A stretch of 64,000 nt of DNA from Escherichia coli. GTDB taxonomy: Bacteria; Pseudomonadota; Gammaproteobacteria; Enterobacterales; Enterobacteriaceae. Of the stretch, positions 41,601-44,600 are shown piece after piece. The stretch lies in assembly GCF_045037415.1 (NCBI RefSeq), contig NZ_CP173438.1. One strand, given 5' to 3'. Numbering within the stretch: the stretch's first letter is position 1; each line of letters begins with the position of its first letter. Made by a program: the position numbers.

Positions 41601-44600
41601 TAAACACGCTGACCTGCCATTAAATCTCAATAAACAGGTGGCATCTGGGGCTTTTACGCAATACGGATTTAAAGGGAACTTGCCTGCGGGTTTACAAGGA
41701 TCTACGGGGCGAATCCTTTCTCGTTGGGGAGATTCCGGGTGGGGAAAGCAGGTAGCCCAGGAGAAAAAAACGGGGCGCTTCAGTGATGAGCTGGTGGAGG
41801 CATGTGCGGAAATGGTTCGCCAACGCTGGAATCCGCATCCTGAACCCACCTGGGTATGCTGCGTTCCTTCATTAAGGCACCTCGACCTGGTTCCTGATTT
41901 TGCCCGGCGACTGGCGGCGAAACTTGGCTTACCTTTTATTGATGCCATTGAAAAAGTCGTGGACAATCCACCGCAGAAAATGCAGCAAAACCGTTTTCAC
42001 CAGTGTCAAAATCTCGACGGGGCGTTTGTGATTACCCCTCCTTTGATGCCAGGTCCGGCGTTGCTGGTTGATGATATCGTGGATTCTGCATGGACGCTGA
42101 CAGTTCTGACAGCACTGTTACGCCAGGCAGGTTGCCCGACGGTTTATCCTCTTGCCCTTGCTTCTACCTCGGTAAAAAATTGATGAATCTTTCAGCCAAT
42201 GCTCAAGCAACTCTCCTGCTAACCAGCGATTTTTCTCGCGCGGCGGCGAGTGAGTATAAACCTCTTAGTAATAGTGAATGGGGGAAGTTTGCATTATGGC
42301 TGAAGCACCAACGTATCAGTCCCGCCGAGCTTCTGGTGCCGCAACCGCAAGAGAAACTTACAGGCTGGAGCGATCCGCGTATTTCTCAGGAGCGAATTCT
42401 TGGCTTGCTGGCGCGTGGTCATAGTCTGGCGTTGGCTGTAGATAAGTGGCAACGCGCCGGTTTATGGATCTTAACCCGCGGAGATGCCGATTATCCCGTT
42501 CGCTTGAAAAACCGATTGCGAACGGATGCACCTCCCGTTTTATTTGGCTGCGGGAATAAAGCATTACTGCAAGCGGAAGGTATGGCGATTGTTGGCTCGC
42601 GAGATGCTCCGACTGACGATTTGCGCTATACCCAACAACTGGCCGCGAAACTGGCCCAACAGGGGATTTGCGTTATCTCTGGTGGTGCGCGAGGTATTGA
42701 TGAATGTGCAATGGCCTCGGCTCTGGAGGTCGGGGGAACTGCCGTTGGCGTATTAGCTGATAGCTTGTTAAAAACGAGTACGTTAGTGAAATGGCGTGAA
42801 GGGCTTATAGCAGGCAACCTGGTGTTGATTTCGCCGTTTTACCCAGAGGTACGTTTCACCGTCGGCAATGCGATGGCGCGGAATAAATATATTTATTGCC
42901 TTGCTGAAAGCGCAATGGTTGTACGTGCGGGAATGACCGGTGGAACGATAACCGGGGCGATGGAGGCATTAAAACATCAGTGGCTGCCCATGCAGGTTAA
43001 ACCAAATCAGGATATGCAATCAGCCAATTCACGATTAGTAGAAAATGGGGCGTCATGGAGTGCTGAACAGGCTGAGAATGTGACGATCAGACTGCCAGAC
43101 GTTCCTGGGCTGATGTATGACAGAGCACTCCGTAACGCTCAACCAGAACTGTTTTCGCTGCACGAAGATGACGCAAATTACGCAGTAATGCCCGCGCATA
43201 CCCCTGTCGATTTTTATCAACTCTTTGTGGCGGAACTGGCGATCCTTGCAAAGGAATCGATAAGTATTGAAAGGCTGGCGTCTTGTACTGGTTTAACCAT
43301 CGAACAAATTAGTGTGTGGCTGAACCGCGCAGAAGAAGAGGGAAGGGTTATCCGATTGGGCGAAGGTCATTATCAGTTCAGGTAATAAAACAGGTGCCGC
43401 GTCTGGTTGTGTGCAACACCTGTTTGAACCTTACCCCTTCATCCACATTCGAATGCCGTCGAGGAACATCTGAGTTGCCATCATCACCAGAATCAATCCC
43501 ATCAGGCGTTCAAGTGCGTTCACCCCTTTCTCGCCCAGCAGACGTAAAAATAGCGAAGACTGTAGCAGGATGACAAAGGTGCCGCCCCAGGCCAGCAGCA
43601 GAGCAATCACCAGATGTCCCATCTGATTCGGGTACTGGTGAGACAACAACATCAGCGTGGCGAGAATAGTCGGCCCGGCGACTAACGGAATTGCCAACGG
43701 CACGATAAATGGCTCTTCACCTGCCGGAAGCCCGCTGCTATTTCCTGAAGCGCTGGGGAAAATCATCTTAATGGCGATCAGAAACAGAATGATGCCGCCA
43801 GAAATGGAGACGGTTTCTGCCCGCAGGCTAAGAAATGCCAGAATTTTCTCGCCCGCAAACAGGAACACCAGCATCACAAGGAGAGCAATAAGCAACTCTC
43901 GCACCATGATTGCCCGCCGTCTTTTCGGTTCAGTATGTTTCAGTACGGACATGAAAATAGGTAGGTTTCCGAGCGGATCCATAATCAGGATCAATAAAAC
44001 TGTTGCAGAAATGATTTCATTCATAACTCAAATTCCCTGATAATTGCCGCGGACTTTCTGCGTGCTAACAAAGCAGGATAAGTCGCATTACTGATGGCTT
44101 CGCTATCATTGATTAATTTCACTTGCGACTTTGGCTGCTTTTTGTATGGTGAAAGATGTGCCAGGAGGAGAACCGGCACATTTATACAGCACACATCTTT
44201 GCAGGAAAAAACGCTTATGAAAAATGTTGGTTTTATCGGCTGGCGCGGTATGGTCGGCTCCGTTCTCATGCAACGCATGGTTGAAGAGCGCGACTTCGAC
44301 GCCATTCGCCCTGTCTTCTTTTCTACTTCTCAGCTTGGTCAGGCTGCGCCGTCTTTTGGCGGAACCACTGGCACACTTCAGGATGCCTTTGATCTGGAGG
44401 CGCTAAAGGCCCTCGATATCATTGTGACCTGTCAGGGCGGCGATTATACCAACGAAATCTATCCAAAGCTTCGTGAAAGCGGATGGCAAGGTTACTGGAT
44501 TGACGCAGCATCATCTCTGCGCATGAAAGATGACGCCATCATCATTCTTGACCCCGTCAATCAGGACGTCATTACCGACGGATTAAATAATGGCATCAGG

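Follow-up and report, generated by a model that had tools for sequence, protein, structure and literature searches.

rqlI (psyrA), a DprA-like antitoxin gene overlapping the RecQ-like helicase gene rqlH in an accessory module of Escherichia coli

Escherichia coli has a housekeeping dprA/smf gene, and a second, divergent DprA-like reading frame lying directly behind a RecQ-like helicase gene therefore raises the question of what this additional protein is, and whether it serves DNA processing or belongs to a conflict system. We addressed this question in a window of 64,000 nucleotides of E. coli contig NZ_CP173438.1 (RefSeq assembly GCF_045037415.1), for which a preliminary description had proposed an extra DprA paralogue, translationally coupled to the helicase and akin to components of nucleotide-sensing conflict systems. 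The gene is already known: it encodes RqlI (PsyrA), an antitoxin of E. coli that keeps the toxic RecQ-like helicase RqlH (PsyrT) in check. The same E. coli gene was named and characterised as rqlI by Russell & Mulvey 2015 (PMC4670107), psyrA being its catalogue name in Millman et al. (bioRxiv 10.1101/2022.05.11.491447), and PsyrTA is also cited to Sberro 2013. The case can serve as a calibration, in that the module was recognised from raw sequence without tools, though the gene had been published before under two names. Taken as a whole, it is in our judgement very probable that the frame is rqlI, the antitoxin gene of a horizontally acquired two-gene rqlHI/PsyrTA module between gntU and yhgN, acting by the mechanism proposed below.

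The identification comes from profile matches to both proteins and from the mapping of published primers (Table 1). The PsyrA profile of PADLOC (PDLC03927) matched the product over its full length (E = 1.4e-202, 671 bits, residues 1–400 against profile positions 1–397/398), and the PsyrT profile matched the helicase product at E = 0 (1065.7 bits, residues 3–698 against profile positions 4–687/689); RqlH also exceeded the cut-off of the NCBIfam RecQ_fam model TIGR00614 (251 bits, cut-off 219.8). These full-length matches, together with the kinship to DprA-PRTase (ShosTA) systems, bear out the suggested membership in a conflict system. The locus was equated with rqlHI of the ExPEC strain F11 by primer mapping and residue numbering, used as a surrogate for alignment of the F11 proteins. 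Eleven published F11 primers or primer 3' parts mapped to 40087–43385 in the expected order and orientation: those for rqlH fell on rqlH at 40084–42183, the RqlI cloning primers delimit the stretch from 42183 to the stop codon (TAA, 43383–43385), and the qPCR primers lie inside rqlI, the exceptions being one mismatched base in an RT-PCR primer and apparent PDF-reading errors in the tail of one cloning primer. K49, D148 and DIVD663 of F11 RqlH are present at those positions here in the 698-aa numbering, which corresponds to the second ATG of rqlH at 40087, the start used in the literature; K49, D148 and D663 are the residues mutated in F11 RqlH (PMC4670107). The PRTase domain of RqlH takes up residues 509–698. 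RqlI of F11 (EcF11_3933) is the same gene, with 400 aa, the same start and the same place directly downstream of a RecQ-like helicase-PRTase, and there is no difference of substance between the two; the allele in the window exactly matches those of genomes labelled ST-131 / O25b:H4 rather than that of F11.

Table 1. Features of the rqlHI module, in window coordinates
Feature	Position	Strand	Remarks
Left end of accessory segment	39947–40083	+	Terminator hairpin, untranslated leader, presumed rqlH promoter, Shine-Dalgarno
rqlH/psyrT, toxin	40084–42183	+	RecQ-like helicase-PRTase; 699 aa from first ATG
Stop/start overlap TGATG	42181–42185	+	rqlH TGA 42181–42183, rqlI ATG 42183–42185
rqlI/psyrA	42183–43385	+	400 aa plus stop; DprA-like antitoxin; PADLOC, Pfam, F11 primers
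N-terminal helical domain, RqlI residues 1–91	42183–42455	+	Family-specific; predicted at the SAM-domain position of DprA/ShosA
DprA/SLOG Rossmann domain, RqlI residues 95–300	42465–43082	+	GSR, SGGARGxD, ARN motifs
Variable linker, RqlI residues 306–341	43098–43205	+	Predicted disordered
C-terminal winged helix-turn-helix (predicted), RqlI residues 344–400	43212–43382	+	AF2 H-H-H-E-E topology
Hairpin between convergent rqlI and yhgN stops	43388–43425	.	RNA fold -14.5 kcal/mol, z -1.97

The core of RqlI is that of a DprA protein with a Rossmann/SLOG fold, as first described. The motifs IVGSRDAPTDD, ISGGARGIDECAMASALEVGG and YCLAESAMVVRAGMTGGT were all found in its translation, Pfam DNA_processg_A (PF02481) matched residues 89–292 (E = 2.2e-50), and SLOG cluster4 (PF18306) matched as well (E = 1.8e-10). 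Sequence matches in the PDB were to DprA of H. pylori, R. palustris and S. pneumoniae and to ShosA, and Foldseek returned 3MAJ (E 2e-18), 8ZVA (E 6e-16) and 3UQZ (E 1e-15). With the housekeeping DprA/Smf proteins (E. coli b4473; 3MAJ; 3UQZ; H. pylori 4LJR) RqlI shares the superfamily and the GSR, SGxAxGxD and ARN motifs, and with full-length DprA (3MAJ) a predicted three-domain order of helical N-domain, Rossmann domain and winged helix. SLOG/LOG-type Rossmann proteins and molybdenum-cofactor carrier proteins (6Y01, 2IZ5) were more distant fold matches (E 1e-6 to 1e-4), with a similarity much weaker than that of DprA; these matches explain why PMC4670107 annotates a 'MoCo-binding domain', and also the earlier remark on SLOG domains. 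Residues R140, G167, R170, D173 and R233 of RqlI are 97–100% conserved in the family. Two of the three arginines that contact ssDNA in H. pylori DprA are kept (R140 and R233 in RqlI); the third (R170 in the H. pylori protein) is M260 in RqlI and is not conserved in the family.

Kinship of this kind could be taken to mean that RqlI is a second, redundant housekeeping DprA, loading RecA on incoming ssDNA for transformation, a role in line with the PF02481 domain and DprA fold, with the names and GO term given to the protein in RefSeq, and with the binding of RecA by ShosA. Its identity to K-12 Smf, however, is 33% and confined to 156 aa of the core, and it scored below both NCBIfam DprA equivalog cut-offs (TIGR00732, 101.2 against 191.15 bits; NF008007, 80 against 495), on which grounds a duplicate of the housekeeping gene was rejected and the proposal of a divergent extra paralogue upheld. 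The helicase-PRTase gene is linked in all ten sampled homologous loci as well as in this one, although 1.2% of strains have RqlI only (PMC4670107); moreover, cells suffer from the loss of rqlI only if they carry rqlH, and no transformation was detected in ExPEC (both PMC4670107). A second transformation protein is thus scarcely credible. Judged by its sequence, RqlI is a member of the DprA superfamily and not an orthologue of Smf/DprA, from which it also differs in partner and role, namely the restraint of a toxin and not transformation.

The core had been described as flanked by a distinct N-terminal region and a winged-helix-like tail. Distinctness of the N-terminal region held for its sequence but not for its fold, since the predicted domain layout is that of full-length DprA (3MAJ). 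The N-domain, with AF2 helices at residues 5–14, 30–42, 47–50, 55–59, 69–76 and 79–91 (pLDDT 78–92), is as conserved as the core (66% mean identity to RqlI of this locus, with many invariant residues); it is family-specific in sequence and yet, according to fold matches, would sit where DprA and ShosA have their SAM domain. This domain is needed for antitoxin activity, as constructs without residues 1–84 or 1–129 (HTH also missing) fail to complement and a 1–320 construct fully rescues (PMC4670107). A linker with pLDDT <50 and 20% mean identity across the family leads to the C-terminus, where AF2 places helices at 344–355, 362–369 and 373–385 and strands at 389–392 and 396–399 (pLDDT about 77–92). 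The model supports the predicted winged helix, agreeing with what had been noticed in the raw sequence, and in Pfam the C-terminus gave only a weak match to HTH_26 (E 0.35) and none to the DprA winged helix. The C-terminal HTH is dispensable for antitoxin function, given the rescue by the 1–320 truncation (PMC4670107).

Base 42183 is common to the stop codon of rqlH and the start codon of rqlI, and this one-base overlap, from which coupled translation had been proposed, was confirmed in the sequence. A stop/start overlap was kept in nine of ten distant homologous loci, measuring 4 bp in all nine by gene calls or annotation; an ATGA overlap with the helicase stop was read at sequence level in four distant homologues, whose proteins start MNL or MNV, and locus L009 has a 7-nt gap between the two genes and no overlap. 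The two genes are co-transcribed, as seen by RT-PCR in F11 (PMC4670107), and we infer that translation of rqlI is coupled to that of rqlH. This would be irrelevant if the true product were a 431-aa form starting at an in-frame ATG at 42090, inside the 3' end of rqlH; the ORF list contains this form, no stop intervenes between the two ATGs, and database records of 431 aa exist. The upstream start was nevertheless rejected. M1 and N2 of the 400-aa form are invariant in 34 homologues (51–71% identity), those homologues whose sequence was read start at the helicase stop, the PADLOC PsyrA profile aligns from residue 1 of the 400-aa form onwards, and the published 400-aa construct beginning at 42183 is functional (PMC4670107); for these reasons we take 42183 as the supported start. 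The 400-aa form is, in addition, found on at least 1000 contigs, and we hold the longer product to be highly improbable.

The genomic setting of the pair is that of an accessory element. In E. coli C, where the site is empty, a 56-bp spacer separates gntU from yhgN; here a segment of 3.48 kb stands in place of that whole spacer, homology ending at the gntU stop and resuming at the yhgN stop, with the right end of the segment near 43430. At its left end, a terminator-like hairpin proximal to gntU (39958–39985) is followed by a T-rich run, and a Shine-Dalgarno sequence, GAGGGAG, stands just upstream of the ATGATG of rqlH; a sigma-70 consensus scan of the + strand from 39986 to 40084 returned no site, and the rqlH promoter was not located. 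The hairpin beyond the rqlI stop is possibly a terminator shared by rqlI and yhgN. An intrinsic terminator after rqlI was rejected, the hairpin being weak (z -1.97) and lacking a T-run on the + strand. On reading the junction sequences we saw neither a target-site duplication nor the ends of a mobile element, and the module has no integrase or transposase next to it. Among 5426 complete E. coli genomes, rqlHI is present as a single chromosomal copy in 1650 (about 30%), the E. coli alleles being all at least 95% identical in nucleotide sequence, and its GC3 is 0.47, as against 0.59–0.64 in the flanking genes; this distribution and composition mark the module as accessory in E. coli. No plasmid carriage of this allele was seen, the one plasmid find in E. 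coli being a homologue of 48.7% identity on an IncF plasmid, and the contexts of homologues include defence islands, restriction-modification (R-M) genes and mobile elements.

The published toxicity and neutralisation data come from F11 alleles expressed in MG1655 (PMC4670107). RqlH alone causes SOS induction, filamentation, mutagenesis and growth arrest, with a need for the PRPP-binding pocket of its PRTase domain (D663); co-immunoprecipitation of RqlI with RqlH requires the PRTase domain, and RqlI neutralises RqlH toxicity by means of its N-terminal domain and DprA core, the C-terminal HTH not being needed (PMC4670107). Deletion of rqlI alone has likewise been published, along with the interaction and neutralisation: its loss cripples colonisation by ExPEC in the gut, in the urinary tract and in sepsis, and in infection models the deletion of both rqlH and rqlI gave no phenotype (PMC4670107). 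The module is, in this respect, a fitness determinant of ExPEC. PsyrTA (RqlHI) also figures in a list of systems with a part in resistance to phage, and in the same work a deletion of psyrA could not be transformed (bioRxiv 10.1101/2022.05.11.491447). A single native-host test came to light, in which PsyrTA of E. coli NILS69 gave no detectable protection in K-12, in a strain with a growth defect (bioRxiv 10.1101/2024.12.20.629700).

We propose that the overlapping stop and start codons would tie synthesis of RqlI to translation of RqlH, such that no toxin is made without antitoxin, and that the N-domain and Rossmann surface of RqlI would hold the PRTase domain inactive. The conserved DprA ssDNA-binding arginines (R140, R233) could then, as the ShosA analogy suggests, let ssDNA or RecA-type phage-replication intermediates draw off or remodel RqlI, and the freed helicase-PRTase would damage DNA or nucleotide metabolism, aborting the infection. 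A different model has been put forward by Russell & Mulvey (Fig 10 in PMC4670107), in which RqlH and RqlI work together as a machine that processes or repairs DNA: a nucleotide within DNA or close to it is modified by the PRTase, RqlI and the helicase resolve this intermediate, and toxicity without RqlI is an artefact of unresolved intermediates. It draws on the observations that helicase-dead RqlH (K49A, D148A) lowers CFU even with RqlI and that RqlH homologues without RqlI are common in Gram-positive bacteria (both PMC4670107), and some homologues do have DNA-repair neighbours (ssb/uvrA in locus L006, nei/photolyase in locus L009). A repair machine is, however, hard to reconcile with a double deletion that has no fitness phenotype (PMC4670107), with a gene pair that is accessory and single-site, and with homologues that lie in type I R-M operons, beside PARIS-like genes, on a conjugative plasmid and in integrase-bearing islands. 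PsyrTA is reported to be anti-phage (bioRxiv 10.1101/2022.05.11.491447), and in O55:H7 the toxin has decayed and the antitoxin been kept, as is typical of toxin-antitoxin modules. We therefore consider the repair model quite improbable, and favour restraint of a toxic RqlH by RqlI.

A parallel for RqlI as antitoxin is ShosA of ShosTA (the 'DprA-PPRT' of Rousset 2022; structures 8ZVA, 9VZO), these DprA-PRTase conflict systems being related to PsyrTA (PMC9122126). ShosA too is a DprA-like antitoxin whose partner, a PRTase toxin, damages DNA and makes cells filament, and it has an N-terminal helical (SAM) domain, a Rossmann domain and the two ssDNA-binding arginines shared with RqlI. In a direct comparison, the ShosA profiles of PADLOC matched only residues 85–266 of RqlI (92.7 and 30.8 bits, as against 671 bits for PsyrA), and with this core-only match and a helicase-PRTase fusion as partner RqlI falls outside ShosA. 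ShosT is a stand-alone PRTase, whereas the PRTase of RqlH is fused to a RecQ-like helicase, and RqlI has an extra linker and winged helix in comparison with ShosA. ShosA binds ssDNA and RecA, both of which are needed for its antitoxin function (PMC11961720, PMC12961424); by analogy, and with two arginines conserved, RqlI may bind them as well. The analogy may not carry over, however, because ShosA neutralises without binding ShosT directly (type IV) whereas RqlI binds RqlH.

In five of ten distant homologous loci the PsyrTA pair lies inside a type I R-M operon, inserted between hsdS and hsdR; one of the nested homologues is carried by plasmid NZ_OX030731.1, at 34045–44124. The same position is that of prrC in the EcoprrI type I R-M operon, although PrrC is a protein unrelated to PsyrTA, and the chromosomal E. 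coli rqlHI studied here stands alone, with no adjacent R-M genes. One reading would make PsyrA a sensor of phage intermediates by way of its DprA ssDNA/RecA surface, the pairs nested between hsdS and hsdR a PrrC-like back-up that fires when the type I enzyme is neutralised, and the stand-alone E. coli copy a derivative; we offer it tentatively, as unlikely. A search of the literature available to us found no paper on the mechanism of PsyrTA and no description of the R-M nesting or of such a sensor and back-up. Conservation of the ssDNA-binding residues and the repeated occurrence of the pair within type I R-M operons offer testable leads on the trigger and target of PsyrTA.

Current RefSeq records label the protein 'DNA-processing protein DprA', with the GO term 'DNA-mediated transformation' and sometimes with the 431-aa start, and this combination of label, term and occasional start masks the known role of RqlI.

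The preliminary description had placed a divergent DprA-like gene directly behind a helicase gene, here the RecQ-like helicase-PRTase gene rqlH, its ATG sharing a base with the helicase TGA. Reading of the two ORFs, recovery in the translation of all three peptide motifs it cited, and Pfam matches show that its coordinates, the shared base (42183) and the DprA/SLOG domain call were correct. The DprA domain (PF02481) spans residues 89-292 of the product (E 2.2e-50), which also matches SLOG cluster4 (PF18306, E 1.8e-10).

Some database records begin the protein at an in-frame ATG inside rqlH, at 42090, giving 431 aa, but residues M1 and N2 of the 42183 start are invariant in 34 homologues of 51-71% identity, four distant homologues start with MNL or MNV exactly at an ATGA overlap with the helicase stop, and the PADLOC PsyrA profile aligns from the first residue of the 400-aa protein onward. 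Sequence evidence thus favours 42183 as the probable start, and the upstream one is very unlikely to be real. Public annotation of the window and RefSeq records name the product 'DNA-processing/DNA-protecting protein DprA', and one RefSeq record carries the GO term 'DNA-mediated transformation'. Neither the DprA/transformation naming nor the 431-aa extension fits the evidence.

Coordinates of the gene pair, of the predicted RqlI domains and of related loci
Feature	Position	Remark
rqlH (psyrT) ORF	40084-42183 (+)	stop TGA 42181-42183
rqlI (psyrA) ORF	42183-43385 (+)	400 codons; ATG 42183-42185, TAA 43383-43385
431-aa form of some records	42090-43385
Segment replacing the gntU-yhgN spacer	39947-43430	3.48 kb
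RqlI helical N-domain	residues 5-91	AlphaFold2
RqlI Rossmann domain	residues 95-300	AlphaFold2
RqlI disordered linker	residues 306-341	AlphaFold2
RqlI winged helix	residues 344-399	AlphaFold2
E. coli C, empty site	L002 1748-1803	56 bp between gntU and yhgN stops
E. coli O55:H7 CB9615	L008 1631-4928	rqlH annotated frameshifted with internal stop; rqlI intact
IS1 transposase within rqlHI region	NZ_OZ040267.1 307334-311661 (whole match)	flanks identical to window
IS1 transposase within rqlHI region	NZ_OZ039848.1 311021-315348 (whole match)	flanks identical to window
Marinobacter	L004 537-10514	pair between hsdS and hsdR
Vibrio vulnificus	L005 547-10587	pair between hsdS and hsdR
V. vulnificus, adjoining genes	L005 10741-12506	DUF4276 and AAA_21/AAA_15 ATPase
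Shewanella	L007 474-10605	pair between hsdS and hsdR
Degraded metagenomic copy	L012 4525-8812	pair between hsdS and hsdR fragments
E. coli IncF conjugative plasmid	L014 1514-11593	pair between hsdS and hsdR
Citrobacter werkmanii	L011 4905-8206	pair at gntU-yhgN
Jejubacter calystegiae	L009 4906-8236	pair between gltA and nei/photolyase genes

PADLOC recognizes both products over their full length, that of rqlH as PsyrT (E = 0, 1066 bits) and that of rqlI as PsyrA (E 1.4e-202, 671 bits), while profiles for ShosA, the antitoxin of the related ShosTA system, match only the RqlI core (92.7 bits). RqlHI is another name of PsyrTA according to Millman et al. (bioRxiv 10.1101/2022.05.11.491447), an equivalence that we checked by mapping the rqlH, rqlI and rqlHI-junction primers of Russell & Mulvey for ExPEC strain F11 (PMC4670107, S2 and S3 tables) on the window. 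All fell within 40087-43385 in the expected order, with the RqlI expression primer starting at ATG 42183, its reverse partner finishing at the stop, and the RqlH primer starting at the second ATG, 40087; the residues mutated in that study (K49, D148 and DIVD663) lie at exactly those positions in 698-aa RqlH numbering. The gene is therefore rqlI (psyrA), already the subject of experimental work; the earlier observation is confirmed and its interpretation supported.

RqlI can be aligned with K-12 Smf, the housekeeping DprA, over no more than 156 residues of the core (33% identity, E 8e-17). Its scores of 101 and 80 bits fall short of the two NCBIfam equivalog cut-offs for DprA (191 and 495 bits, respectively), bearing out the suggestion of an extra paralogue. 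Judged from these comparisons, RqlI is a divergent DprA paralogue, not a duplicated core gene. A canonical DprA is also present in F11 and other ExPEC (PMC4670107), and that RqlI is a redundant transformation DprA is hardly credible. In an AlphaFold2 model built from a 34-sequence alignment (mean pLDDT 84), the top Foldseek match in the PDB was full-length R. palustris DprA (3MAJ, E 2e-18, 418 aligned columns), followed by ShosA (8ZVA, E 6e-16) and S. pneumoniae DprA (3UQZ, E 1e-15, TM 0.77-0.78 on target). MoCo-carrier and LOG proteins matched only at E 1e-6 or weaker, and these fold matches explain both the 'MoCo-binding domain' of PMC4670107 and the SLOG remark of the preliminary description. 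Mean identity to the window protein is 66% in the N-domain, which is thus as conserved as the core (59%), an intermediate 43% in the winged helix, and 20% in the linker, which is not conserved. H. pylori DprA contacts ssDNA through R52, R143 and R170 (PMC12961424); two of these arginines have 97-100% conserved counterparts in RqlI (R140 and R233), and at the position of the third RqlI has a non-conserved M260.

Deletion of rqlI causes SOS induction, filamentation, a raised mutation rate, weak microaerobic growth, and fitness loss in gut, urinary-tract and sepsis models; all these defects are suppressed by deleting rqlH, and loss of both genes together is without phenotype (PMC4670107). The original authors' model, in which RqlH and RqlI cooperate in repair, appears unlikely, and the best explanation has RqlI as the antitoxin in a toxin-antitoxin/defence module gained by horizontal transfer. 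Toxicity of RqlH alone in MG1655 requires the PRTase pocket (D663), and without its PRTase domain RqlH is no longer co-immunoprecipitated with RqlI. RqlI 1-320 neutralizes the toxin fully, unlike constructs that lack the HTH and, in addition, the N-terminal 84 or 129 residues (PMC4670107). Co-transcription, binding and neutralization, and domain requirements have been demonstrated, as has the identity of RqlI. PsyrTA is counted among the systems with a role in phage resistance, and a psyrA deletion was not transformable (Millman et al., bioRxiv 10.1101/2022.05.11.491447); PsyrTA of NILS69 was among the systems without detectable protection in K-12, in a strain that grew poorly (bioRxiv 10.1101/2024.12.20.629700). 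In the related ShosTA system, neutralization depends on binding of both ssDNA and RecA by the antitoxin, which does not bind the toxin (PMC11961720, PMC12961424). A literature search for a mechanistic paper on PsyrTA sensing found none. As an antitoxin, RqlI would have its synthesis coupled to RqlH translation by the conserved stop/start overlap; its family-specific N-domain may be the grip on the RqlH PRTase, and its DprA surface may serve as the input through which phage ssDNA or RecA-type intermediates release the toxin.

The window is part of an E. coli chromosome, with the gene order yhhX, pirin (yhhW), gntR, gntK, gntU, the two extra genes, yhgN, asd, glgB, glgX, glgC and glgA. The 3.48-kb segment stands in place of the whole spacer of E. 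coli C, including that spacer's own hairpin; on reading, the junction sequences showed neither a target duplication nor repeats nor mobility genes. GC3 is 0.47 in both rqlH and rqlI vs 0.59-0.64 in flanking core genes. Of 5426 complete E. coli genomes, 1650 carry rqlI, in every case as a single chromosomal copy with a nucleotide identity of 95% or more, and alleles identical to that of the window are found in genomes with the label ST-131 or O25b:H4. The O55:H7 CB9615 locus is a toxin-decayed, antitoxin-kept pattern, and O55:H7-type alleles appear to form a class of their own at the left junction. In the two genomes with IS1, the match exceeds the query by ~777 bp and the helicase annotation is split in two, apparently a further way of inactivating the toxin; a similar IS split is reported for Shigella sonnei 53G (PMC4670107).

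The protein family is large: of 8000 candidates scored, no fewer than 4404 clusters belong to it at E <= 1e-10. Five of 10 sampled homologous loci carry the pair inside a type I R-M operon, between hsdS and hsdR, which we take to be the place of prrC in EcoprrI; a literature search found no description of PsyrTA nesting in such operons. The genes adjoining the V. vulnificus R-M/PsyrTA composite encode the domain pair of the PARIS system, so this region resembles a defence island. One further locus, outside these five, lies in an island that also carries integrase, BrxR-like and MobI genes. The C. werkmanii copy, at the same site as in E. coli and with a 64% identical DprA-like protein, suggests either that the module has long resided there and was lost repeatedly, or that alleles were exchanged via flanking core genes. 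The J. calystegiae pair, with a 7-nt gap between its genes, is the only sampled homologue without the stop/start overlap.
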